A stretch of 64,000 nt of DNA from a virus (IMGVR_UViG_3300042363_001351:32001-96000), one strand, 5' to 3'; counted from the stretch's first letter, positions 3,800 through 50,478 are shown. Notes: generated by a model from the sequence alone, not told the origin. Numbers and translations: made by a program.

Positions 3800-5808
3800 T
3801 TGACTATACAAATAAAAAAAGATTCTTCACTTCCGGAAACGATTTCTTTACGCTTTCCGGAAGTAGATATACAGGATATGTATTTTGTTTAAGCGGCGCT
3901 GCTTATATTGATAAGACCAATATACCACTACTACCTCAATCCACCTTCGAAAGTAATTTGTATATTTCTAGTTATCTTAAAAATAGAGATACAATTGAGA
4001 CGCTTACCCTACCTTATACGGATACTGATGTTCTATTTGACGCTAATGACTTTTTAACCAGGGAGTTATTTCTAGATAGGCTAGGAAAATTACACGATAA
4101 TAACACATTCGTTTATTCTAAGCTATTCATGGCTAATAATGATTTACCTGCTCTAGCAACTCCAGGTACAGAGATAGATAATTATTCTTATGCTTGTTTA
4201 ATTGATAGTAACAGCACTTCATTAAAGTGTGTTAGCGGTACTATTCAAAGTATACCTTTCGGTGGCAGTAATAAGACGGAGTTCAGAGAACTAGGCAACA
4301 TTAGACGATTTACCTCAAAGCTAAAAGACGACATACAGTCCGACTATACTATTTTTGCAATTACTAGCAGTGGCTTTACTACGCTATCTGGCAGTAGCAA
4401 AGAATGTAAGGTAATAGAACCCCATTCAACATATATCGAGAGTGTAGAAAATTCTTTAACGTTTGGGTCTCTATTTGATATTACCCTATCAAGAAACTTT
4501 ATCTTTATAACCGACGAGAAAAATAGCGTAATATATAAGTACGATATAGGTGGTTATTACAATGGAGATCTAGCACTAGCCAATAAAAGAAATCTTCTCG
4601 AAATATTAGGCGGTGATGGTCCGAAGGAGGCTAAAAACTTATTTAGAGCGCCTAAACATATCACTTCAAATGACGATATAATAGTCATTAACGATTCTGG
4701 AAATAGAGTTATAAAGATTTTTGATTTAGATTTTAACTTTATTACACGTATAGGTAGTATACCTCAATTTCGCGAACCTATTGCAGCTTTAAAAATTAAT
4801 GAATTTTTTAATACTCTTTACGTATTTACGAAATCTACCAATGTGTTAAATAGGTTAAGCCTATACATATTTGATTTGGATTGTTATAGATTAGTAGAAA
4901 CCTATAAAGATATAGATGTACCTCTTCAACCTACAGAAGTGGTTTTAAATATAGAATTTAGTAAAAATAGCAGTGATTATTATTATGTGTGTACTGATAG
5001 GCAAGTTTATAAATTATTTGTAAGTAAGCCCAATGTATTAATTGGTAGATATCAAGAGCTAAATCTTGATTACATAACCGGAACACAGGTCGTTAAGCCT
5101 ATTGATAATACAAATACTTCCACTTCAACAACTACACCATCTAATCAATGGTATGTAGTTAATAAATTTTTTAAAGATAGTACATGGAGTTGGGGAGCTA
5201 CCACGCCAGGAACCACTACAACTACTACGACTACTACAACCACTGTTACAACTGAAGAACGACCCAATATATCGGTATTCAATGATGTGTATAAAGGACT
5301 AGCTCTATTACCAACCTCTAATAATTATGACTCAGTTGTTTTTATTACAGATGGTAGAATATATTTCTTCAACGAACCTAATACATATAAACAGGTTATA
5401 AAAACAACAGAGTTATTTAAATTCGGAAAAGCTAATATGACTCTCTCTTCAGAAGAGTATATACAAGCATCTACTATAAATAAAGAAATTTATAAGGTTG
5501 CAAGAGATATATTATTAATAAAGAATAACTTATTGGGTAGATTTACAGGGGTATATGATGTGAGTAATATCTTTACTCTTACAGATTATAATTATAATGT
5601 TGACTTTAACGCCTTCTCACTTCTTCAGCCGGAAGATTACTATGTGCACGAGAATGAGAAGTCTATGGTCTCTGTATTAAATAGAGCATTTAAAAATATT
5701 CTCGATCTGCAACTAAAATTAATCGACTTAACGGCTATAGATAAATCTCTCACTGTTAAAAGGGAGCTGGTTATTGCTCCAAATGTCGGTACGTTGCAAA
5801 TTAGCTAA
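3796..5808 (+). CDS. Virion structural protein with NHL/beta-propeller-like repeats and a Thr-rich linker
   Basis: IFITDEKNSVIYKYD and FRAPKHI...IVINDSGNRVIKIFD are NHL-like; poly-Thr tract; ATGA overlap with the upstream gene. Confidence 0.5.
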   Translation: MIDYTNKKRFFTSGNDFFTLSGSRYTGYVFCLSGAAYIDKTNIPLLPQSTFESNLYISSYLKNRDTIETLTLPYTDTDVLFDANDFLTRELFLDRLGKLHDNNTFVYSKLFMANNDLPALATPGTEIDNYSYACLIDSNSTSLKCVSGTIQSIPFGGSNKTEFRELGNIRRFTSKLKDDIQSDYTIFAITSSGFTTLSGSSKECKVIEPHSTYIESVENSLTFGSLFDITLSRNFIFITDEKNSVIYKYDIGGYYNGDLALANKRNLLEILGGDGPKEAKNLFRAPKHITSNDDIIVINDSGNRVIKIFDLDFNFITRIGSIPQFREPIAALKINEFFNTLYVFTKSTNVLNRLSLYIFDLDCYRLVETYKDIDVPLQPTEVVLNIEFSKNSSDYYYVCTDRQVYKLFVSKPNVLIGRYQELNLDYITGTQVVKPIDNTNTSTSTTTPSNQWYVVNKFFKDSTWSWGATTPGTTTTTTTTTTTVTTEERPNISVFNDVYKGLALLPTSNNYDSVVFITDGRIYFFNEPNTYKQVIKTTELFKFGKANMTLSSEEYIQASTINKEIYKVARDILLIKNNLLGRFTGVYDVSNIFTLTDYNYNVDFNAFSLLQPEDYYVHENEKSMVSVLNRAFKNILDLQLKLIDLTAIDKSLTVKRELVIAPNVGTLQIS

Positions 5809-5812
5809 CTAC

Positions 5813-5820
5813 TATAAATA
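5813..5820 (+). promoter_or_regulatory. T4-type late promoter TATAAATA
   Basis: Exact T4 late consensus 7 nt before ATG 5828; gp55 is encoded in the window. Confidence 0.8.
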
Positions 5821-5827
5821 TATATAA

Positions 5828-6532
5828 ATGCCAGCGACGCCAGCTACAAATTTAGAAACAGTAAATATAAGTGATACTTATTATAGTTTATTGCATTCTG
5901 GTGGTGTGCCTATACCAGCAACAGGACAACCTCTAATAAGAGATGGTAGTGGAACGCCGACAGCTTTAAAATTAGGAGCTAATTGTAACGGTGCTACTAT
6001 TTGCGGCACTCTTTCTGCTACAACCTTAGCAGGCGGGAGTTTAAATCTAGATTCTAAAATAACTCCTACCCAACTTAACTTACTTGAATTAGTTAAGGCT
6101 CTATACCCTTTAAATGCAGTAATTTATACGACAGATAGCATAAACCCTGGTACTAGATCAGGCTGGGTTGGTACAACTTGGACGCAAATAGCACAAGGTA
6201 GGTTTATTGTAGGTGTAGGTACGGGTATTGATAGTAGAGGAGAATCTAAACCAATTACACCCGGTAATAACGCCGGTGAATATAATCACATTCTAACAGA
6301 AGCGGAAATGCCATCGCATACTCATAGCCTTATGGTCGGTACTGAGCAGTTCTATATTACAAACGACAAGAACGATAAAAATCCAACATCCCTTGGACGA
6401 TTTCGGAGCGATGGCCCCTCGGGTGACAAGGATGGTAGATATTGTTCTATCTTACCATCCGCAGGTGGTAGCTCTCCTCACAACAATGTACCTCCAGGGT
6501 TTGGCTTGTATGTATGGCAAAGAACAGCCTAA
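5828..6532 (+). CDS. Baseplate/tail protein with gp10-C-like domain
   Basis: YPLNAVIY..NPG..GTTWTQIAQGRFIVG..GEYNHILTEAEMPSHTH..PHNNVPP..YVWQRTA. Confidence 0.7.
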   Translation: MPATPATNLETVNISDTYYSLLHSGGVPIPATGQPLIRDGSGTPTALKLGANCNGATICGTLSATTLAGGSLNLDSKITPTQLNLLELVKALYPLNAVIYTTDSINPGTRSGWVGTTWTQIAQGRFIVGVGTGIDSRGESKPITPGNNAGEYNHILTEAEMPSHTHSLMVGTEQFYITNDKNDKNPTSLGRFRSDGPSGDKDGRYCSILPSAGGSSPHNNVPPGFGLYVWQRTA

Positions 6533-6554
6533 AATACTAAATATTTAAAATTAT

Positions 6555-7631
6555 ATGCCCGATATCACCATAGTAAAGCTTAAAATTAGAAGAGGTAGTG
6601 ACGCTCAGCGTAAATCCGTTGTTCTCGAGCAGGGGGAATTGGGATATACTACTGATACAGGTAGGGTGTTTATAGGTAATGGTGTTAAGTTCGGTGGAAA
6701 TATAGTGGGTAACATAATTCACAATCCAACATCAATTGCTAATAATAGAGTCAATCAAGCCAATGCTGTGCAGGGTGATATTATATATGATAATTCACTT
6801 TTATGGCAGCTTACAGGAACCGATATAACATCACCAGTAAGTTGGAGTAATATAAGCACGAGATGTGATAATTCTCTAGTTACTTACAATGGAAGCAACA
6901 GGCTTACCTTGGTTAATAATAGTATTGGTCCGGCTATATTAAACAATACTATTGTAAACTCTCAAGGCGCTCTAAACTTTAATAATAGTACCGGTCTTTC
7001 TGCAAATGTTGATGGTACTTATGTTACTATAACATCAAATAGGCTTACGATTAATCCTATAGATGAGAGTAAAATTAAATCTACTGCTCTTAGTAGAGGA
7101 TTACAGGGTGGAGATGGAACAAAATTATCTCTAAAGGTAGATGATAGTATTTTTGGCTTTAATACGAATACTTTAACTATTACCGCTTTACCTAGTGATG
7201 TAGTTACAGTTGATTCGCTGAGCTCCACGTTTGTTGGTGCAGGACTACAGGTGCAAGGAGGTGGAATTTCAACTATAGTACAAAGCTACGATTCTAGTTC
7301 GTTTGATGTTGATATCAACACCTTAAGACTTAAGTCTATAATAACTCCTGCCACGACAACGTTTGAGAATATAACATATAATAGCTTTGGTCAAGTAACA
7401 GGCACTTCATCTACAATTGCTACTACTTTTTCAGGATTTAACTCTGGTACTAACGGATTATTTAATGGAAGATGGAATCAAACTACTTTTAGTAATCAGA
7501 CCTTATTAACTGCTATATCATCTAACCCCGCAGGAACATCTACAGCTAGAATAGCGCTTTCATCAGCTGGATTTATTGCAATCAACACTAAACTCGGAGA
7601 TCGATTTGCTATTCCGGTATTTAGGTATTAA
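6555..7631 (+). CDS. Tail fibre protein with Mtd-like N-terminal domain
   Basis: KLKIRRGSDAQR..LEQGELGYTTDTGRVFIGNG. Confidence 0.65.
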   Translation: MPDITIVKLKIRRGSDAQRKSVVLEQGELGYTTDTGRVFIGNGVKFGGNIVGNIIHNPTSIANNRVNQANAVQGDIIYDNSLLWQLTGTDITSPVSWSNISTRCDNSLVTYNGSNRLTLVNNSIGPAILNNTIVNSQGALNFNNSTGLSANVDGTYVTITSNRLTINPIDESKIKSTALSRGLQGGDGTKLSLKVDDSIFGFNTNTLTITALPSDVVTVDSLSSTFVGAGLQVQGGGISTIVQSYDSSSFDVDINTLRLKSIITPATTTFENITYNSFGQVTGTSSTIATTFSGFNSGTNGLFNGRWNQTTFSNQTLLTAISSNPAGTSTARIALSSAGFIAINTKLGDRFAIPVFRY

Positions 7632-36328: not shown

Positions 36329-37386
36329 TTATTATAAAGATCTAGCGTATAGTTAAGTATATCATTTTTATCTTCTATGTCAAGAAGATTTATAAATTCC
36401 TCAATAGCGCACGTAATATCAATTCCAGATAGATCTTTATCATTGTTATCATTACTAATTTTATTATAACTCAAATCATATTCTATTTGTAGAGCTTCAG
36501 GCTTTAGTAAATTTAACTTTGATGTAAGAATAGCTAAATCTTCTTGCGATATATTTCTGTCTACTTTAAATTTAACTATATTATTGAGAAATAATGTTTT
36601 TATTTCCGATGTAATAGTTGTAGCCTCTACAAGATCACTCAAATTAATTTTCTTATAGTGAGGTGATATAGTATTTTCAATAAACTCATATTCTTGCGTA
36701 TCAATATCAAGTATGTGATAGCCTTTAGTATTATCACAATCGCCGAAATCCATTTGAAACGGATTACCTACATACAAAATGGTGCCTGAGCCGTATTTTT
36801 TTTCATGTCTAAAGTGAAAGTGACCTGAAATAATTAAAGAACTCTTACTTAATAACTCCTTAACACTTAGACCGTCTTCACAATCCTTATATGAATTCAT
36901 CTTGAACGTTTCAATTTCAAAATGACCAAAAATAATATCACTTTTTTCTATTTGTTTAGTAGAGGTACCCCACGGACACAATGTTATTGTTTTATCAAAT
37001 ACACTTAATGTAGTAACCTTATCTATTACTGAGATATTCCTACTATTTTTAAAGAGAGAAAGAGAGTTAACATCAGTTCTATGTTTATAGTATATGTCAT
37101 GATTACCAACTAAAGCAATAACATTAAAGTCTTCAAAAATTTTTAATATATCTGCAGATACTTGAAGTGTATTAACTGATATCTCACTTCTATTATGATA
37201 CCAGTCGCCACAGAATATAATATCCTTTATATTCTGTTTTTTGAGCTCTCTGCAAAGCCAGTTAGCCCAATTCAAAGCAATTTCATGCCATTGAGTGCTA
37301 TTAGTATGTACACCTAAGTGTAGGTCAGATATAATAGCAACTCTAGGCTTATTAATCTTGATCATAGAAGTCGTCATCACCATCAC
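36316..37386 (-). CDS. Recombination nuclease (gp47/Mre11-like)
   Basis: SDLHLG, GDWYH, GNHD, GHFE, SGHFH, YVGNP. Confidence 0.95.
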   Translation of the reverse strand: MMVMTTSMIKINKPRVAIISDLHLGVHTNSTQWHEIALNWANWLCRELKKQNIKDIIFCGDWYHNRSEISVNTLQVSADILKIFEDFNVIALVGNHDIYYKHRTDVNSLSLFKNSRNISVIDKVTTLSVFDKTITLCPWGTSTKQIEKSDIIFGHFEIETFKMNSYKDCEDGLSVKELLSKSSLIISGHFHFRHEKKYGSGTILYVGNPFQMDFGDCDNTKGYHILDIDTQEYEFIENTISPHYKKINLSDLVEATTITSEIKTLFLNNIVKFKVDRNISQEDLAILTSKLNLLKPEALQIEYDLSYNKISNDNNDKDLSGIDITCAIEEFINLLDIEDKNDILNYTLDLYNKCTV

Positions 37387-37789
37387 CTACAGGTTTAACA
37401 TAAACGAGATTGTTACATGTTTTAGGATCATTCATAATATCCTCATATACTTTCTCTCTATAGTTTTTTTCTGCTTCATGATGCCTTTTTTCCTTTTTAA
37501 TACGATTAACGAACGCATTAAATGCAATCGTTGTAAAATATGAGAAAGGGTTTGACTCAGCAGCAAATTTATATTTTTTACCCTTAAGTGCTGAGTACAT
37601 TTTAATAAGAGAGTCTCCTATCATGTCGTCTTTGTAAGTATAATTAATAAACGAGCTATTATAGCTTAGACCATAAGCAATTTTTTTAATATTCTCAGCA
37701 AGGTCATCAGTCAAAATATCAGATTCATAGTACTTACGTAAAGATTCTTTAAATTCGACAGGATTTACGTAGTAATTTTCTTTAGACAT
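37352..37789 (-). CDS. Late-transcription sigma factor (gp55-like)
   Basis: YYVNPVEF, F.NYTYKDDMIGD, NPFSYFTTIAFNAFVNRIKKEK. Confidence 0.92.
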   Translation of the reverse strand: MSKENYYVNPVEFKESLRKYYESDILTDDLAENIKKIAYGLSYNSSFINYTYKDDMIGDSLIKMYSALKGKKYKFAAESNPFSYFTTIAFNAFVNRIKKEKRHHEAEKNYREKVYEDIMNDPKTCNNLVYVKPVGDGDDDFYDQD

Positions 37790-40307: not shown

Positions 40308-40665
40308 CGATATTCTTCGTAAATCGTATGCTAAATCACTTAGCGATGCTATTAATTTAGATGTTCCTTTTGACGTTAATAATTTAGATATTAAAAAACT
40401 TATAAAACATAATCTTATAATAGATATATGTGAGTTTAAAAAACTTCCGTCAAAAGATTCCTACTTTTATATTAGTAGAGATGAATTTAATGAGGAGTTT
40501 GTAGTAATTTTAGATGAGGTTTTTTCAAAGATGGAACTTTATAAATACGAAAAAAGCAAAAATTTCTTTCAGAATTTTCGTAAATATTTAAAATTAAACG
40601 GTTTGAGTTATATATTAAACGTTTATCTAAAGCAAGTTGGTAACAAATTAGCTTTATTTAGATAA
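40246..40665 (+). CDS. Hypothetical protein (start uncertain)
   Basis: Fills the gap in the + strand cluster. Confidence 0.4.
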   Translation: MTIITESLISEYQSQKSICLNDILRKSYAKSLSDAINLDVPFDVNNLDIKKLIKHNLIIDICEFKKLPSKDSYFYISRDEFNEEFVVILDEVFSKMELYKYEKSKNFFQNFRKYLKLNGLSYILNVYLKQVGNKLALFR

Positions 40666-40673
40666 ATATACTT

Positions 40674-41042
40674 ATGAGTAAATTTCTTAAAATAGTAGGT
40701 GAAAATCTAGCGAGTATAGATAATCCTCAAGCAATCTTCTATCTTAAGCTTGTAGATGATAAAGGAAACGATATTGGCTATGAACCAATACAGTTAAGAG
40801 GCACTACTTACGCAGAAGATGTATTTTTAAAAATAAAAAATGCTATCAGTGAGGGTTCAGATATAAACTCTACTCCAGAAGAGGATAACGAAATTTATGC
40901 TGGTGCAGAGGCTTTAAGTGATATGGGTGATAGGGATACGACAGCAAGACTTAAAAGACTTAAAGATACTGCAAGAATAAAAAGACCTATAATTAATGCC
41001 ACAATTACAAAACTAGCAGACAGTTTATCGAAAGTACAATAA
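40674..41042 (+). CDS. Late hypothetical protein
   Basis: TAAATA 5 nt upstream; MSKFLKIVGE. Confidence 0.6.
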   Translation: MSKFLKIVGENLASIDNPQAIFYLKLVDDKGNDIGYEPIQLRGTTYAEDVFLKIKNAISEGSDINSTPEEDNEIYAGAEALSDMGDRDTTARLKRLKDTARIKRPIINATITKLADSLSKVQ

Positions 41043-41722
41043 TGTCCAAAACTCTAAAAATAATATCAAAGTACTATAAGGTGTTAGGAGAGCAAGCTCC
41101 TGATGAGCAGCTAGGAGGAGGTGAGGCTTCGCCAGTACCTGCTGAGGCGCAACAGACTGGCAGCCTACTAAGTGAAAACGAAAAGTATGTGATAAAAATA
41201 CTCACTAATGCTTTTATCTTTAATCCTAATTTATTCGATAAGTCAAAACAAAAATATATCTATAGTAAGATTGATCAAATAAAAGGAATGGTGAACGTAC
41301 CGGTCTCGAAAACAGTGGATGAGATTAAAAAAATTATAGCTATAGACAGAAGCTTGAGAGTTGAGTCTAAGACGCTTTCGCTATTAGATAGTTATATGAT
41401 TTTAATTGAGCAACCTGCTGACGCTACAGAACCGCAAGGTGGCTCTCAGCCAGCTCAAAAAAATATTGTTAATCAATCAACGGAGGGTGAGTTGAATGGT
41501 GAAGGTAATAATTTAAATTTAGCTGAAATTTTTCCACTCTATAAAGAATTAATACTCAAGGCTCTTAAGCACGCTCCCACTGAAGAAGAGTTAATGATAA
41601 TAAAGCCGGTCGTGAATGAATTTGCTGATTCTGACCCAGAAAAAATAGTAGAAGCTATTCAAAATATTCTAAGTCAATCTTTAGAAGATAAAGAAGTAGA
41701 AGACAACTTGAGCAATGCCTAA
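41042..41722 (+). CDS. Late hypothetical protein with an internal two-fold repeat
   Basis: SKTL.I...Y.VL.EQ occurs twice (N-terminus and ESKTLSLLDSYMILIEQ). Confidence 0.6.
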   Translation: MSKTLKIISKYYKVLGEQAPDEQLGGGEASPVPAEAQQTGSLLSENEKYVIKILTNAFIFNPNLFDKSKQKYIYSKIDQIKGMVNVPVSKTVDEIKKIIAIDRSLRVESKTLSLLDSYMILIEQPADATEPQGGSQPAQKNIVNQSTEGELNGEGNNLNLAEIFPLYKELILKALKHAPTEEELMIIKPVVNEFADSDPEKIVEAIQNILSQSLEDKEVEDNLSNA

Positions 41723-42971
41723 TTGGAATCTAGAAAAAATCTATTCAGAAAGGGTGAAGGATGTAGGCCACATCTCTCAACCTAGACATATTGTTACAGA
41801 GTTTACTTCTAAGAGCCAGGTTAAAAAAGCTATTGTAAATAATAACCCCTCATTAAAGGTAGGTACAGATAAAAAGGGAGCAATAAGATTGCAGCCTAAG
41901 GTTAAGGTTGATGATAAAGAGAAATTTACTCAGGATTTTCTTAATACTCTAGATGATATAAATCTTATAGTAGTAGATGTAATACCTCCAGGAGCTCCTG
42001 ATTCACCCTCTAGTGCTTTTAACTCCTATAAGGTAAAGGACTCTGCTAGTAATGAGTTTGTTATTACATTAGGTGGAGGTTCGTTCGGTAACGCCGGGAT
42101 GAATTATGAAAGAGAAATATTAAAGGCTGCTGAAGCTTATTTTAATAAGCCTGAGGAGGTAGAAAAACCTAAATTTATAGAAAAAATAGAAGACTATTTA
42201 AATGTAAAATTTACAGATTTAGATAAAGGTAAATCGTTTGAAAGAAAGGTTAAGAGACCTCTTACAGATGAGGGTCCGAGTGATAAGGGAGATGAGATAT
42301 CTGATATAACATTTATAGATGAAGATAAAAATAAGTATTACATCTCGATAAAAAACATAGGAGGTAAAACAGTTTCAAACGCTGGCGCTAAGGGCATGTT
42401 TAAGCTTTCTGGAGATGAAGTAGAGTTTACAAACCAAGAGCGTAATAAAATTGGAGGTAAACTATTAAGTGCAGCAAATGCTAACATAGATAAAATTATA
42501 CGCGGTCTTGAAGATTATATAAAGGAGACACCTTCGCAGCCCGATCAAGATAAAAATATAGATACTACAGACGAGTCAGATATTGAAGCATTGCAGAAAT
42601 TTTTAGGTTCTGCATTTGATTACGGGTATATTTACGTTAAGCAAAAAAACAAAAGAGATGATTTAGAAATAGCAGATCTCACCACAAAAGAAGATCTTTA
42701 CGATTTTGTTGGTGATATTAAAAAAGTAGAAGTAAAATACCCTTATTATCTTAATTCAATTAGATCGCGAAAACACGCATCTATTATTTTGACTACTGAC
42801 AAAGGTGTCTATAGTTTTGATATTAGAAATGCAGCTGGAGATGTTATACCTAATCAAATTAACCTTGTGAGAGGTGGTAGTAATAAAGATATTAAGCTTA
42901 ATAAAGCTAATATATCTAAGATTGGTACGGGTAACTCAGAAATAGAAAATATATTATCACAATATGATTAA
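41715..42971 (+). CDS. Putative PD-(D/E)xK restriction-endonuclease-like protein
   Basis: GNAGMNYE...ISDITF..YYISIK arrangement of putative catalytic residues. Confidence 0.45.
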   Translation: MPNWNLEKIYSERVKDVGHISQPRHIVTEFTSKSQVKKAIVNNNPSLKVGTDKKGAIRLQPKVKVDDKEKFTQDFLNTLDDINLIVVDVIPPGAPDSPSSAFNSYKVKDSASNEFVITLGGGSFGNAGMNYEREILKAAEAYFNKPEEVEKPKFIEKIEDYLNVKFTDLDKGKSFERKVKRPLTDEGPSDKGDEISDITFIDEDKNKYYISIKNIGGKTVSNAGAKGMFKLSGDEVEFTNQERNKIGGKLLSAANANIDKIIRGLEDYIKETPSQPDQDKNIDTTDESDIEALQKFLGSAFDYGYIYVKQKNKRDDLEIADLTTKEDLYDFVGDIKKVEVKYPYYLNSIRSRKHASIILTTDKGVYSFDIRNAAGDVIPNQINLVRGGSNKDIKLNKANISKIGTGNSEIENILSQYD

Positions 42972-44658
42972 TTTTAGACAGTATTTCAATTTATTAATTG
43001 AGGGGGGTAATGTTTTTAAACAAAACCCAACTCAACGTATAAACCTAACCGATATTAAACCTACTATTGACTTTCTGTCTAATATAGTGGGTTCTGATTT
43101 GATGAAAAATCTTTTAGGTAGTACTGGTAAGAGAGAGACGTCAGGTGATTTAGATATAGCCATAAACGAAACTAAAATGTCAAAAGTAAAGCTATACGAC
43201 GTTCTTGCTAGCTGGTGTATGGAGAGAAATTTAAATCCTAAGGATTATATTGCTAGATCTGGTATAAGTGTGCATTTTAGAACGCCAATATATAATAAAG
43301 ATGGTGAATACGTACAAACAGATTTTATGTTTGTACCAGATATAAACTTTGCAAAGTTTGCTCTATCTAATGATGAGCCTTTCCCATTGAAGGGAGCTTA
43401 CAGAAGTATTGTGATGGCTAACTTAGCTAAAAATTTAAACTTAAGATGGAGTGGTCTAAATGGAATTACAGATAGACAGACAGGCAACACTATAGAAAAT
43501 AAAGACACTGATAGAGTGGCTCAAATTCTATTAGGAGATTCTAATGCTCGTACTAGAAATTTATTCAATATAAATTCTATAATAAAGTTTTTGCTTAAAA
43601 AGTATAAAGATATTAACATAGTTATGTCTCTCCTAGATGAAGCTAGACAAACAATAAAAAGAGACGGAGTTGATATATTTAGCGAAAGTGGTGTCATTAA
43701 AGAAAGTACTAATATAACCGGACAAAGAGTAGGAGTACAGCATTTATATTCTGAATACAAGCCAGAACAGTATTCAATGGATTTTGAAAATTTTACAAAA
43801 CTTCTCGATGCATTAGAGGAAACTAACGGTATTATTCAACCAGGCAACTCTAGTATAACGGAGAAAGCTGATGGATTATCGGTTAAGTTTGGCGTAACAC
43901 CTAAAGATAAGTTCTTTTTACAGGGAAGTTATTCCGGTCCGGTTACAGATGGCAGCTTTGAAAATAAGATAAGACACGAGCCAACAAAGAGAGCGTTCGA
44001 AGATAATTTTAGTAAAATTAAAAAACTTGTCTTTAAAACACTCTTACGTTACAAGAAGGATTTAAAGCTAGACGGACTTAGAGTCCAGGCAGAATGGCTA
44101 TACTCGCCTTTTGCATTAACACGTGAAGATGCGCCGGGTATTGTCTATTTTGTAGCTACCAACTATCAAAAGGATAAACTAGGAGTTTGGTCTACCTTTC
44201 CTCTTATTAATGTAACTGATTATAATGGGCGCGAGCTATCAGCAGAGTTAATTCAAGATATTACAAAGAGCTTGGTTGATTTATCTAATGATAATGTAAA
44301 GTTTATACCTCTTGATATTGACGTCTTCGATCCAATAAATCTTAAGTATGAGACCGACAGCGCAATTCAAGAAATAAAAACTTTTGAATCTCAAAATCCA
44401 AACTACGAAGAAGTACTTTTTAATACTTCAAGGAAGCGTGACGATCAATTGGCTAAGAAGGCCATGAGATCTCATTTAGTAAAAATACTTTTACCATATC
44501 AACGTAGAATGCATACAAAAATACTTCGCAAGCTAGGAAAGCTAGCTGGTAAACTAGGAGACTATGAAGGACTTGTAGTAAAAATATTACAACCGGATGA
44601 AGTTTTTACCTTTAAGGTAATATCACCAACATTTCACAAAAACAAAGGACGTATATGA
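42964..44658 (+). CDS. Fusion of a Pol-beta-type nucleotidyltransferase and a ligase-like (KxDG) domain
   Basis: LLGSTGK..SGDLDIAI..VQTDFM in the N-half; TEKADG..QAEWLY..YEGLVVK..FKV in the C-half. Confidence 0.6.
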   Translation: MINFRQYFNLLIEGGNVFKQNPTQRINLTDIKPTIDFLSNIVGSDLMKNLLGSTGKRETSGDLDIAINETKMSKVKLYDVLASWCMERNLNPKDYIARSGISVHFRTPIYNKDGEYVQTDFMFVPDINFAKFALSNDEPFPLKGAYRSIVMANLAKNLNLRWSGLNGITDRQTGNTIENKDTDRVAQILLGDSNARTRNLFNINSIIKFLLKKYKDINIVMSLLDEARQTIKRDGVDIFSESGVIKESTNITGQRVGVQHLYSEYKPEQYSMDFENFTKLLDALEETNGIIQPGNSSITEKADGLSVKFGVTPKDKFFLQGSYSGPVTDGSFENKIRHEPTKRAFEDNFSKIKKLVFKTLLRYKKDLKLDGLRVQAEWLYSPFALTREDAPGIVYFVATNYQKDKLGVWSTFPLINVTDYNGRELSAELIQDITKSLVDLSNDNVKFIPLDIDVFDPINLKYETDSAIQEIKTFESQNPNYEEVLFNTSRKRDDQLAKKAMRSHLVKILLPYQRRMHTKILRKLGKLAGKLGDYEGLVVKILQPDEVFTFKVISPTFHKNKGRI

Positions 44659-45188
44659 TAAGCTTTAAATTATTCTTCGAACAAAATAAAGAGACTGTGG
44701 CTATTTTCCCTGGAGGATTTAAACCACCTACAAGAGGTCACTTTGAAGCATTAGAGCAGTTATTAAAAATATCTAACAAAGGTGTAATTTTTATTGGTAA
44801 AAGTCCTCGTGATGGTATAGACCAAGAAATGGCGTATCAAATTTGGAGCATATACGCTCCATACTTAACCAAACCAGTAGAAATATATAAGAGCCCGGTT
44901 ACTCCTTTAAATTCTACGTATGACTACGCTTTAAATAATCAAAATTTAAATATAATAGTTGGTGCAGGTCCTGAAGATAGTAGTAGATATAACTCCTTCC
45001 GCAAAAATCCTGAAAAATATCCAAATGTACAAATATTAGATATACCTTTAAGTGGTGAGGGAGTTAGAGGTACACAGACAAGAGAAAAAATTATGAGCAA
45101 AGATCCAGCCTCTTTAGATTTTTTTATTCCGGAAATTATAAATCAAACAGATAGAGAAAGAATTAAGAAGATACTAGGTATAGCATAA
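44655..45188 (+). CDS. HIGH-family cytidylyl/adenylyltransferase-like protein
   Basis: FPGGFKPPTRGH..VRGTQTRE. Confidence 0.75.
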   Translation: MISFKLFFEQNKETVAIFPGGFKPPTRGHFEALEQLLKISNKGVIFIGKSPRDGIDQEMAYQIWSIYAPYLTKPVEIYKSPVTPLNSTYDYALNNQNLNIIVGAGPEDSSRYNSFRKNPEKYPNVQILDIPLSGEGVRGTQTREKIMSKDPASLDFFIPEIINQTDRERIKKILGIA

Positions 45189-45196
45189 ATAATAAT

Positions 45197-45682
45197 ATGT
45201 CAAAAAGAGAAGATTTTAAAATGTTAGCAGAGGCTTATGGTAGTGTAGGTGGGTTACCTCTTACACCTTCAAACATGCTCGGTGGTAAGCCTGTAATGAT
45301 AACAATGGATTTACCTGGAGCAGAAGTAGATCATGAAAGTCATGAATCGCATGAAGAGGAACATGTGGAGCGTGAGGGTGAGAGTGATCCGAGTGAGATA
45401 GAAATGGCGTCAGCAGAACTTCATAAACTTGCAGAATATGCTCCCAAGTTAAAAGAAATGGTACAACAAATGTCTGGTCTTGAGGGGTGGATTGCTTCTA
45501 AAATTACTAAAGCATCTGATTATATATCCTCCGTATATCACTGGTTAGAGTTTCAACAGCACGAAGGCGGTGAGAGCTGCAGTCATGAAGAAGAAGACAT
45601 GTATAATAAAGGTCATGGAGACGCAGAATGTCCTTACGCAAAAGAGGGCTGTACTTGTGGAGGATGTCCAGATTGTAACTAA
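45197..45682 (+). CDS. Late acidic His/Cys-rich protein
   Basis: TAAATA upstream; LEGWIASKITKASDYISSVYHWLE; C-terminal CPYAKEGCTCGGCPDCN. Confidence 0.6.
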   Translation: MSKREDFKMLAEAYGSVGGLPLTPSNMLGGKPVMITMDLPGAEVDHESHESHEEEHVEREGESDPSEIEMASAELHKLAEYAPKLKEMVQQMSGLEGWIASKITKASDYISSVYHWLEFQQHEGGESCSHEEEDMYNKGHGDAECPYAKEGCTCGGCPDCN

Positions 45683-46122
45683 TGAAAAGCTTTAAGAAAT
45701 TTTTCGAGGCTACAGTTATAGGTCTAATTGAAAAAATAGAACTAGCTGGAATCGGTTCTCTTGAAGCTAAAATAGATTCCGGTAATGGAGCCTATAACGT
45801 TTTACACGGAGAGAATATTACAAAGCAGGGTAATAAGGTTACCTTTACAACTATAGGTGGTAAGAGAATCATAAAAGACGTTCACGATACTATTAATATT
45901 AATGTAGGAGCTGGTCACGTTGAAGAAAGGCCTGTTGTTTCATTTAGAATGAAGTTTGCAGGAACAGAGTTTGATAATATTCCGTTTAGTATCGGAGATA
46001 GATCACAGAACGAGTATAAAGTCCTTATAGGTAAAGATTTTATTAAGCAGCTCGATGCGCTAATTGATGTAAATTCGAATCACATTGCTGATGATAAGAT
46101 TGAGGTTGACTATACCAATTAG
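45682..46122 (+). CDS. Retropepsin-like protease (RimK-associated 'ATP-dependent Zn protease' family)
   Basis: IGLIE..EAKIDSG..LH..EERPVV..FSIGDRS..Y.VLIGKDF. Confidence 0.8.
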   Translation: MKSFKKFFEATVIGLIEKIELAGIGSLEAKIDSGNGAYNVLHGENITKQGNKVTFTTIGGKRIIKDVHDTININVGAGHVEERPVVSFRMKFAGTEFDNIPFSIGDRSQNEYKVLIGKDFIKQLDALIDVNSNHIADDKIEVDYTN

Positions 46123-46662: not shown

Positions 46663-47331
46663 CTATTTAGAGGCCATATCAATAAACTTATAAAACTCAG
46701 TTCGAGTCTTTTCATCCTCCATAAAATCACCTGTAAGTTTAGAAGTAATCATATAACAACCTTCATGCTTAACACCGCGATGACATGCGCAAGTATGTTG
46801 AGCTTTAATAACCACAGCAATACCGCGATTTTTTTCACATACCTGATCAATAGCTTCAGCAATTTGCTTAGTAAGACCTTCCTGAATTTGAGGTCTACGA
46901 GCGTAAAATTCTACAATACGATTGAGCTTGCTGAGACCTATCACCTTACCATCGAGAGAGGGAATATAAGCAACATGCGCAACTCCTGTGAAGGCAAGGT
47001 GATGGTGAGAACAGAGCGATTTAACAGGAATATTACACTGAGCAATTACACCATCATAACCGTCAGTAGGAAAAGCGGTTACCGACGGTGGGCTATTATA
47101 ACATCCTGAAGCAATGTCATTTACAAAAGCCTTTGCCACACGCATAGGAGTATTAGAGGAATTAGGATCGTTTCTCCAATCAAAGCCAAGCGCGTCTAGA
47201 TACTTTTCATAAGCCTTAGCAGCTCTTTTTATAATAGATTGCTTTTCTCTATCTGTACGCGGAGCATTTCCATTAGCGTTAGGAAGCTTAACTTCTTCTC
47301 CTGTTACATCATGTTCATCTAATTCATCCAT
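46663..47331 (-). CDS. folE: GTP cyclohydrolase I; start probably ATG 47331
   Basis: [39 protein letters not shown]. Confidence 0.95.
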
Positions 47332-47337
47332 AAGAAA

Positions 47338-47375
47338 ATTATAATATAAGGATAAAGCTAAATCAACCATAAATA
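47338..47375. promoter_or_regulatory. Back-to-back sigma70-like folE promoter (-) and late promoter (+)
   Basis: Minus strand: TTGATT(47366-61)-N17-TATAAT(47343-38) just before ATG 47331. Plus strand: TAAATA 47370-75. Confidence 0.8.
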
Positions 47376-47382
47376 TATACAT

Positions 47383-49092: not shown

Positions 49093-49728
49093 ATGAATTA
49101 TAAATCCACAAAAGTACTTAATCTTGGATCTTGTGCATTTAGGCAGCCAAATGCCGCCTTTAACAGACAGGATGCCGGTAACAACTCACAAAGGTGTAGT
49201 AAGTTGCACGGTTATCGTTTAAAAGCTAAGTTTTGGTTTGGATGCACGCACCTAGATGATAAAAATTGGGTTCAAGATTTTGGTGGATTCAGACCAATTA
49301 AAGAACTTTTCGCATATCAGTTCGATCACACTACATGCTTATCATACGACGATCCACTATTACCTCTGTTTGAAGAACTTGACAAACAAGGTGGCCTTGA
49401 TCTTAGAATTATGCCAGAGGGAACTGGTATAGAAAAAATTGCTAAATTCTGCTGTGAAAAAATGCAAGAATTTGTTAATAACCAGAGTAATGGTAGGGTG
49501 TGGGTAGATAAGGTAGAGGTTTTTGAACATGAGGAAAACTCTGCAATCTTTACCCCTCTGTATGACGTGCTTTGCTCTCCGCAAGAACCTAAACAAGATG
49601 AAGTTGCATCATTAGCCTCTGAACCAATTACTGAAACAGCACCGGCTATTAATACTAATGCCGCACCTGTAGGTAATCATGTATCTCAAGGTATGGGCAA
49701 TCCGTTTGCTGGTACTAGCTGGGGCTGA
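49093..49728 (+). CDS. queD: 6-carboxy-5,6,7,8-tetrahydropterin synthase QueD
   Basis: CSKLHGY, DFGG, FDHT, G.E..A, V.V.EHEENSA. Confidence 0.9.
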   Translation: MNYKSTKVLNLGSCAFRQPNAAFNRQDAGNNSQRCSKLHGYRLKAKFWFGCTHLDDKNWVQDFGGFRPIKELFAYQFDHTTCLSYDDPLLPLFEELDKQGGLDLRIMPEGTGIEKIAKFCCEKMQEFVNNQSNGRVWVDKVEVFEHEENSAIFTPLYDVLCSPQEPKQDEVASLASEPITETAPAINTNAAPVGNHVSQGMGNPFAGTSWG

Positions 49729-50478
49729 TTAATGTTTTGCCTCTAAAACATCAACAATAAATCGTAAAATTTTACTTCTTACGATTTCTGTTTCACCAAA
49801 TTTAAATGCGTAGATTTCATTATCTACGCATTTTTCATTGTTAAAGCGTTTAAATATCTCTTCGTATCCCGAAGCTTTACCAATGTCAGATTGCTTTAAA
49901 TCTCCACAAACAATATATTTTGTATTTTTACCAAAGCGGGTTAATATTGTAACAAGCTCACCCTTGGTTAAGTTCTGTGCTTCATCTACTATTACAACAC
50001 TATCGTTGAATGTAAGTCCTCTAACAAAGTTAACAGGCACTGCATGTATAATGTTACTAGACTGTAGTAACCCGCATGTACTATCATCGGTAACCTCTCT
50101 AACCTTTTCAATTAAAGGCATTGCGTAAGGTAAGAATTTATCATCTACCTCACCTGGAAGTGCACCAATAGATCTTGACGCAGACTCAATAACAGATCTA
50201 ATGTAGGTAATACCTCGCGTCTTTTGATCTTTTATAAGCTCCAACCCAGCAAGTACGGCAATATATGACTTTGCACTACCCGCTGGTCCATCAACAAAGA
50301 CCATATTAGTCTCTTCACGCTTTATGCATTCATAAAACGCTTTGTGGTTGGTATTGAAGTAGAAGGGCTTTTTAATTTTAAAATTAAAAAGCCAGTTTTT
50401 TTGGATAGAATCTTCGATATCTACTAATTCATCCAAACCTGCATTTTTACGCTTACGCGTAGGGGACTTGTGAGTCAT
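49729..50478 (-). CDS. phoH: PhoH-family protein
   Basis: GPAGSAKS, LPG, RGLTF, DEAQN, LTRFG, GD..QSD, IVRS. Confidence 0.93.
   Translation of the reverse strand: MTHKSPTRKRKNAGLDELVDIEDSIQKNWLFNFKIKKPFYFNTNHKAFYECIKREETNMVFVDGPAGSAKSYIAVLAGLELIKDQKTRGITYIRSVIESASRSIGALPGEVDDKFLPYAMPLIEKVREVTDDSTCGLLQSSNIIHAVPVNFVRGLTFNDSVVIVDEAQNLTKGELVTILTRFGKNTKYIVCGDLKQSDIGKASGYEEIFKRFNNEKCVDNEIYAFKFGETEIVRSKILRFIVDVLEAKH

Follow-up and report, generated by a model that had tools for sequence, protein, structure and literature searches.

What do two overlapping genes of an uncultured phage do if, as they appear to, they encode three nucleotide-transfer enzymes, and at what stage of infection would those enzymes act? 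The locus lies in IMGVR_UViG_3300042363_001351:32001-96000, a stretch of 64,000 nt that was analysed whole and is called the window here, with all positions counted from its first letter. A sequence-only reading had described, at 42964-45188, a nucleotidyltransferase (NTase) fused through a possibly cleavable linker to a ligase-like half and followed by an adenylyltransferase-like gene, and had suggested that the activities might be split apart during head maturation. The fusion is called gene 1 below, and the gene that follows it gene 2. Their source is an uncultured, AT-rich, marine virus, assigned to the T4-like myoviruses because its record (110.6 kb, viral, 52% complete by CheckV) encodes a T4 gp21-type prohead protease (Peptidase_S77, E 5.6e-31), a family-B DNA polymerase (PolB), gp46/47-like nuclease subunits, a UvsW-like helicase, UvsY and a gp55-like late sigma factor.

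The answer we favour, with about an even chance of being right, is that the two genes encode a PolX-like/ligase/adenylyltransferase triad that is made late, targeted to the capsid, processed by the prohead protease, injected, and used to extend and seal broken nucleic acid. Within this answer, packaging, cleavage, injection, the substrates and the role of gene 2 are the parts that we infer.

Domain composition of gene 1 and gene 2

The two genes are made up as follows:

42964..44658, + strand: gene 1, a 564-aa fusion of leader, PolX-like domain, linker and ligase-like domain (open reading frame, alignment, model)
42964..43002, + strand: gene 1 leader, residues 1-13, resembling T4 capsid-targeting leaders, with an L-I-E end directly before GGN
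43003..43671, + strand: minimal PolX-like NTase (palm and thumb), residues 14-236 (predicted fold, Asp triad)
43672..43734, + strand: disordered linker, residues 237-257, with a candidate site after the Glu of I-K-E-S (E247, nt 43702-43704; pLDDT, alignment)
43735..44655, + strand: predicted ATP-dependent polynucleotide-ligase-type adenylyltransferase domain, residues 258-564 (predicted fold, motifs, PF09414)
44655..45188, + strand: gene 2, a 177-aa (T/H)xGH nucleotidyltransferase (profile, model, motifs)
44655-44693, + strand: gene 2 leader, 11-13 residues (leader pattern)
44709-44741, + strand: PGGFKPPTRGH motif of gene 2 (sequence)

Both open reading frames (ORFs; 42964-44658, 564 aa, and 44655-45188, 177 aa) and their ATGA overlap at 44655-44658 were located where they had been claimed, as were the motifs. 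The Pol-beta NTase signature GS...SGDLD spans residues 52-64 of the N-half (nt 43117-43155), with the third Asp, D120, in the stretch at nt 43312-43332. The ligase motifs EKADG (residues 300-304), QAEW (375-378), EGLVV (535-539) and FKV (550-552) follow in the C-half, and the proposed linker peptide covers residues 237-248 (nt 43672-43707, where an end at 43710 had been given). Conservation of the catalytic residues had been named as a check, and the motifs proved invariant in a 22-sequence alignment reaching down to 41% identity. Among 150 diverse representatives of N-domain clusters, 147-148 retain the three Asp (D62, D64 and D120), so these motifs are not chance resemblances.

Gene 1 has 975 relatives in metagenomes. 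Direct searches of Pfam, PHROG and PDB sequences gave no match to it, and PDB sequence and profile searches with the protein and with alignments A1, A3 and A4 returned chance matches only (ribosomal protein L1, keratin, a protease). Searching isolated phages by tblastn yielded only weak N-half matches, in two jumbo rhizobiophages. An AlphaFold model built from the alignment has a mean predicted local distance difference test score (pLDDT) of 80 and consists of two domains joined by a disordered stretch at residues 241-257, where pLDDT falls below 50. Both domains have the general folds that had been expected, a Pol-beta-fold NTase in the N-half and a covalent-NTase ligase domain in the C-half, and the first can be sharpened to a PolX-like palm and thumb.

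In the predicted model, residues 19-204 align with Pol beta residues 139-335 (VIA-align; Z 9.7, 158 aa, rmsd 3.4). The match to T. thermophilus PolX is close to this (Z 9.5, 158 aa), and that to the Pol X of African swine fever virus (ASFV) covers 154 of 176 residues (Z 8.1). The catalytic D62 and D64 (nt 43147-43155), D120 (nt 43321-43323) and the G52-S53 pair are all present, and a predicted thumb subdomain follows the palm. The fingers and 8-kDa lyase domains are missing from the N-half, which has only ~236 aa and whose alignment starts at the palm; they are likewise missing in ASFV Pol X. TUTases, Trf4 and CD-NTases align over the palm only (Z 6-7.5, 84-92 aa). Readings of the N-half as a CCA-adding enzyme, a CD-NTase or a TUTase were rejected because those families match the palm alone. 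Because of the PolX-like thumb, the model favours polynucleotide gap filling over CCA-adding or CD-NTase chemistry.

The N-half thus resembles ASFV Pol X and family X in its palm-and-thumb core of ~170-230 aa and its GS...DxD...D metal site and, by analogy, in being paired with a ligase, as ASFV Pol X is for fill-and-seal repair. It differs from PolX in having no detectable sequence similarity, a GS-DxD spacing one residue shorter, an extra conserved GGN-x-FK motif at the N-terminus and extra C-terminal helices. Unlike ASFV Pol X, it is fused to its ligase, in a phage protein that carries a leader. Pol-beta-superfamily NTases are also listed among the protein-modifying domains of polyvalent proteins (PMC5512222), and on that precedent the N-half could be a protein nucleotidyltransferase (AMPylase) that modifies host proteins. 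However, the NTases listed there are minimal four-strand, three-helix versions from Firmicute mobile elements, whereas the domain in gene 1 comes with a PolX-like thumb and a persistent coupling to a ligase; we consider host-protein modification very improbable.

For the C-half, the closest folds to model residues 256-563 are NgrRnl of Naegleria (Z 9.9), T. brucei REL1 (9.7), T4 Rnl2 (9.2) and T4 DNA ligase (9.0). The ligase motifs occur in order, with K301 (nt 43864-43866) in motif I, E377 in motif III, E535-G536 in motif IV and K551 in motif V, all invariant in alignments A1 and A3. The RNA_ligase profile PF09414 could be aligned from end to end in 12 of 22 homologues, at scores under the threshold (best E 2.8e-5). 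The stand-alone C-half P0079 reaches 28.8 bits against a gathering cut-off of 27, while the window protein stays below threshold, without a match. From the modelled fold and the weak PF09414 match, the C-half is assigned as an ATP-ligase adenylyltransferase domain of the Rnl2/REL1/Rnl5 type. It shares with this group the adenylyltransferase fold (Z 9.2-9.9) and the succession of KxDG, motif III Glu, EG-h-V-h-K motif IV and motif V Lys. In contrast to the group, it lacks the Rnl2 C-domain, the NgrRnl N-domain and any OB fold: only 13 residues follow motif V, and the chain contains just an internal helical insert of ~60 aa (~residues 461-524), between motifs IIIa and IV. A single Lys in motif V is a further difference.

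RNA ligases supply both the nearest ligase folds (REL1, NgrRnl, T4 Rnl2) and the only Pfam match (PF09414), which speaks for an RNA repair kit. In such a kit the NTase would rebuild 3' ends, for example the tRNA acceptor, and tRNA or mRNA severed by anticodon nucleases or other RNase toxins of the host would be rejoined by the Rnl2-like ligase, whether or not the enzymes are injected. HAD-type NT5C domains, which belong to the T4 PNK phosphatase superfamily and occur in some fusions of the family and next to its gene in phage immuto, point the same way. Yet T4 DNA ligase lies within 1 Z unit of the RNA ligases, the N-half aligns with PolX over palm and thumb whereas the RNA-specific NTases (TUTases, Trf4) match the palm only, and the cluster showed neither a polynucleotide kinase nor a 2',3'-cyclic phosphodiesterase. 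A role as an RNA repair kit seems to us unlikely.

Gene 2 falls, by profile and by structure, in the PPAT/NMNAT group, in agreement with the proposal that it is a (T/H)xGH transferase. Its profile matches a PPAT in PDB (E 7.7e-4, residues 14-164, both signature motifs covered), and PPAT is also the best Foldseek match (E 1.5e-7) of its AF2 model (pLDDT 86.5). Over model residues 12-177, the Rossmann-like fold scores Z 13.9 against the NMNAT NadM, 13.7 against a NadD-like NaMNAT and 13.5 against PPAT, so that the three enzymes stand within 1 Z unit of each other; the Pfam CTP_transf_like score is 15.3, below the cut-off of 21. The P19-H29 motif and a second, SxTxxR-type motif (G139/R143) are invariant in 22 gene 2 homologues. 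The invariant Lys of GGFKPP is not seen in the aligned PPAT (4f3r) or NaMNAT (1kam) sequences and, to our knowledge, is also absent more widely. All structural alignments of gene 2 begin at model residue 12, which argues that the first 11 residues are an appendage to the predicted fold.

Linkage of the three domains in related phages

Do these domains belong together? Co-occurrence had been set beforehand as the test that could refute the association. The association passes it clearly: in 35 of 37 related loci gene 1 has gene 2 directly behind it, mostly with an identical overlap, and many single-chain fusions join the domains. Adjacency in the 37 loci alone would be weak evidence, because related loci are syntenic relatives. 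A profile search with the N-half in a library of 1.8 billion proteins returned 1,215 clusters (50% identity), and domain content was counted in the best 150 of the 1,215 cluster representatives. Solo PolX-like domains make up 68 of these, 56 carry a ligase-like domain (of the gene 1 type or DUF6267) and 25 a gene-2-like HxGH domain. Domain order is permuted among the fusions, with all orders occurring. A single 735-aa chain combines PolX-like, Rnl2-like and HxGH domains, and P0280 is shown by Pfam to join DUF6267 and CTP_transf_like to its PolX-like domain. Across many phages, PolX-like, ligase-like and gene-2-like domains make up a conserved functional triad.

The association extends to isolated phages. 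In Flavobacterium phage immuto (NC_055915; L041 6230-9863), a PolX-like gene is followed by one for a 907-aa protein with a gene-2-like domain (E 1.4e-34). This protein, annotated NadR, comprises a Pol-beta-like domain, the gene-2-like HxGH domain and an HExxH module; hhalign of the gene 1 ligase half against it was negative. The immuto PolX-like homologue starts directly at M-GGN.

In relatives of 625 aa whose N-half shares 43% identity with that of gene 1, the C-half is DUF6267 (PF19782). This domain carries KxDG and EG motifs of its own and aligns weakly with the gene 1 ligase half over motifs I and III (hhalign E 0.04), so that homology between the two is no more than suggested. A DUF6267-like gene precedes a 'cytidylyltransferase' gene in cyanophage S-RIM8, and this transferase has the same kind of leader as gene 2. 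The S-RIM8 DUF6267/ligase-like gene (L042 3872-4768) encodes a 298-aa hypothetical protein with KWDG and EG motifs. T4-like cyanophages appear to lack a DNA ligase; the 298-aa protein could be that missing enzyme and is offered as a candidate for it. Probable activities can likewise be given to DUF6267 and to the domain family, whose clusters number at least 1,200. A literature search found no mention of DUF6267 and nothing relevant on phage fusions of polymerase X with RNA ligase; the domain family, its DUF6267 partner and the apparent prohead-protease-cargo design are undescribed in the literature searched.

Other relatives are chains of 800-1800 aa in which the same domains are joined to nucleotidase, amidoligase, Tad3 and HExxH peptidase-like modules. 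They resemble the polyvalent proteins of phages and conjugative elements, which Iyer et al. 2017 predict to be delivered with the DNA (PMC5512222). The ligase and NTase passages of that paper do not contain the triad of PolX-like, DUF6267/Rnl2-like and HxGH domains. In the present phage, by contrast with polyvalent proteins, the modules are separate, leader-tagged genes. P0238 (1002 aa), P0236 and P0262 are large, polyvalent-type proteins with the PolX-like domain fused to Tad3 (PF25185), NT5C nucleotidase, Amidoligase_2 and DUF5661.

A counter-defence acting on small molecules would suit several of these partners. The transferases would then work on nucleotides, rebuilding NAD+ or another adenylylated cofactor, or making or destroying immune signals. 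By fold, gene 2 is as close to NMN and NaMN adenylyltransferases as to PPAT; in one relative the PolX-like domain is joined to Tad3, a Thoeris inhibitor, and in others to NT5C or Amidoligase_2; and multi-domain injected effectors are a known phage theme (PMC5512222). However, polynucleotides are the known substrates of ligase-type covalent NTases and PolX palm-thumb enzymes, domains fused in polyvalent proteins may belong to separate pathways, and the cluster showed no Nampt, PRPP-synthetase-like or other partner from the NAD pathway. A small-molecule role for the triad is in our view quite improbable.

Leaders, candidate cleavage sites and late transcription

Where the enzymes would act is suggested by their N-termini and by their transcriptional setting, for which three further features are needed:

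45682..46122, + strand: RimB-like retropepsin gene with the same leader type (PF05618, E 1e-7)
40662..40668, + strand: ATAAATA late-promoter-like element, 5 nt before the ATG at 40674
37352-37789, - strand: gp55-like late sigma factor

In T4, the 10 N-terminal residues of the internal protein IPIII are enough for targeting to the capsid, and cleavage by gp21 falls after L/I-x-E (PMC9026906; PMC3012670). The leaders of IPII and IPIII, taken from the T4 genome, read MKTYQEFIAE. The gene 1 leader is retained in 73 of 73 full-length homologues, with its hydrophobic-x-E end directly before GGN. Gene 1, gene 2 and the RimB-like gene have a common start, M-x-x-F-(K/R)-x-(F/Y)-(F/Y), followed by a Glu within a few residues. 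This pattern occurs in 4 of 122 ORFs, where 0.3 would be expected, and three of the matching ORFs are adjacent. The RimB-like gene is conserved in syntenic loci, keeps its leader in L002, L003 and L037, and probably belongs to the same cargo set.

The residues around the Glu before GGN follow a simple rule. Among 122 family representatives, P3 is Leu in 87 and Ile in 30 (117/122, 96%, against a background of 15%), and P2 is variable. The same L/I-x-E rule holds before GGN at internal domain boundaries, after polar linkers. The residues before GGN are dispensable for the domain, because at least 10 proteins begin at M-GGN.

The linker between the two halves bears on the idea that the chain is cut during head maturation, which now has comparative support. 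The pattern [LIV]-x-E-[SN] is found ~8 aa before the ligase core in nearly all scorable homologues, the gene is split exactly at the linker in three divergent relatives (L037, L038, L039) and in P0079, and a gp21-type protease is encoded in the genome, at C1:108853-109518 of the record. In the split forms, the ligase ORF starts with a leader of its own, with an x-E end at the equivalent position, and the triple fusion P0259 has L-x-E at both junctions. For the HxGH transferases, there is an indirect precedent in the T4-like cyanophage S-CREM2, whose cytidylyltransferase was detected in purified virions by mass spectrometry (PMC10665884). This protein has the same leader type, and the HxGH gene found in place of gene 2 in L039 is its homologue. 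Relative to gene 2, the cyanophage transferase is a paralogue whose BLAST similarity is confined to the first 42 residues.

Gene 1 and gene 2 lie inside a tightly packed unit (40674-45188) headed by ATAAATA. This heptamer stands 5-7 nt before the ATG at 21 of the 122 ORFs of the genome, against ~1.2 expected, and the ORFs so preceded include tail genes, the prohead protease and the ORF after the protease. Further examples are at window positions 45186 and 47369. In the window, the full T4 octamer TATAAATA occurs 16 times where 19 would be expected, which is no enrichment; only the positioned heptamer is informative as a late-promoter signal. Its position would imply late transcripts with almost no leader.

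In the favoured reading, the triad would be transcribed late and loaded into the prohead core through its leaders, after which the gp21-type protease would trim the cargo after L/I-x-E. Two cuts would fall in the gene 1 product, one following E13 and one following E247 in the linker; these would free the polymerase and the ligase, and the trimmed products would be injected with the phage genome. In the host, they would fill and seal breaks in nucleic acid, most likely in the incoming phage DNA or, alternatively, in toxin-cut RNA. The minimal family-X-like polymerase half, with its three-Asp metal site intact, would add nucleotides to a 3'-OH, and the ligase half would self-adenylylate on K301 and seal the resulting nick. 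Gene 2 would work with both as a PPAT/NMNAT-like adenylyltransferase, supplying or restoring an adenylylated cofactor. Sealing might proceed through a short ribonucleotide patch, as it does with bacterial LigD.

LigD joins polymerase, ligase and phosphoesterase in one chain and is the model for ribonucleotide-patch sealing. Like gene 1, it fuses a polymerase to an ATP-dependent ligase, in its case for break repair. Unlike gene 1, its polymerase is a primase-polymerase (AEP) and not of the Pol-beta fold, its ligase has an OB domain, and it is a cellular enzyme rather than proposed virion cargo.

The main competitor to packaging is that the same enzymes stay in the cytoplasm and act late, filling gaps and sealing nicks so that replicated or recombined DNA matures before it is packaged. 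The genes adjoin replication and recombination genes (PolB, gp46/47-like, UvsW-like, UvsY), and gene 1 might be the phage's only polynucleotide ligase, with its N-terminal motif serving translation or folding. No canonical ATP-dependent DNA ligase (PF01068), and no PF09414 match, was found in the 110-kb record or in five partial relatives, a negative that is uninformative, the searched records being 28-58% complete, so that a ligase may lie elsewhere. Cytoplasmic repair also leaves unexplained the leader common to three unrelated enzyme families, the regrowth of a leader in the split forms and the 96% Leu or Ile at P3 before the Glu and GGN, internal junctions included, and it gives gene 2 no role. 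We hold it to be an unlikely alternative.

Several observations weigh against the packaged triad itself. The ligase-like gp87 of S-CREM2 was not flagged as a virion protein, which would also fit cytoplasmic repair, and the S-RIM8 ligase-like gene is without an obvious leader. The leader of gene 2 mostly ends in F-F-E, with F at P3, and not in L/I-x-E, and the leader-pattern enrichment test was post hoc. P4 before the Glu is often hydrophobic too and E13 is widely conserved; the hydrophobic-x-E-GGN stretch could instead be a structural element. As to chemistry, the PolX likeness is one of predicted fold, at Z ~9.5 only moderately above the tool's stated background, and comes with no PolX sequence signature by Pfam or PDB sequences (single sequence, profiles A1 and A4). 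RNA and DNA ligases are inseparable by fold, their Z scores being tied, and we know of no role for an HxGH transferase in break repair.

Compared with the T4 proteins IPI-III and Alt, the present system has the same kind of leader (~10-13 aa, ending hydrophobic-x-E), a gp21-type protease and late genes, the last predicted here. The difference lies in the proposed cargo, which would consist of nucleic-acid enzymes, including a two-enzyme chain with an internal site, whereas polymerases and ligases are not known among T4 cargo. Of the phage proteins known to be delivered from the capsid, T4 IPI and Alt inhibit or modify host factors, and the N4 RNA polymerase transcribes early genes. If true, the packaging of a polymerase and a ligase would add a new class to these injected functions, in which the entering genome repairs itself or host RNA is repaired, with relevance to how phages survive nicking, restriction and RNase-based defences. 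L/I-x-E before GGN would provide a simple sequence rule for predicting head cargo in uncultured T4-like phages.

A wider proposal, which we put forward tentatively and regard as doubtful, applies to the large family as a whole (at least 1,200 clusters, 50% identity). Its members would be cut by prohead proteases at L/I-x-E inside the capsid, and the injected triad would repair or cap the incoming DNA. It would act before any phage gene expression, for example through ribonucleotide-patch sealing or a nucleotide-cofactor cap at the ends, and would, if true, constitute a pre-loaded counter-measure to host nucleases.

Neighbouring genes

The genes around the cluster comprise:

41715-42971, + strand: 418-aa gene, overlapping the start of gene 1 by 8 nt
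45197-45682, + strand: acidic, His-rich 161-aa protein with a C-terminal Cys cluster, a leader-like start and its own ATAAATA motif
46663-47382, - strand: GTP cyclohydrolase I
49093-49728, + strand: PTPS/QueD-like gene
49729-50478, - strand: PhoH

The 161-aa protein may be a core or internal head protein. GTP cyclohydrolase I, the PTPS/QueD-like gene and PhoH flank the cluster, which is consistent with a 7-deazaguanine pathway in the phage.

The 418-aa gene upstream was dropped as an obligatory member of the module, as roughly half of the related loci lack it. Among named clusters of the ESM Atlas, those nearest to it are restriction endonucleases (scores 0.89-0.91), which is a lead only, and its homologue in L039 (3055-4329) has a leader-like N-terminus. 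In another related locus, L038, a terminase-like ORF of 911 aa (4256-6991) shows a His-Asn-Cys junction directly before a Walker-B-like LLVDEAD and probably contains an intein.

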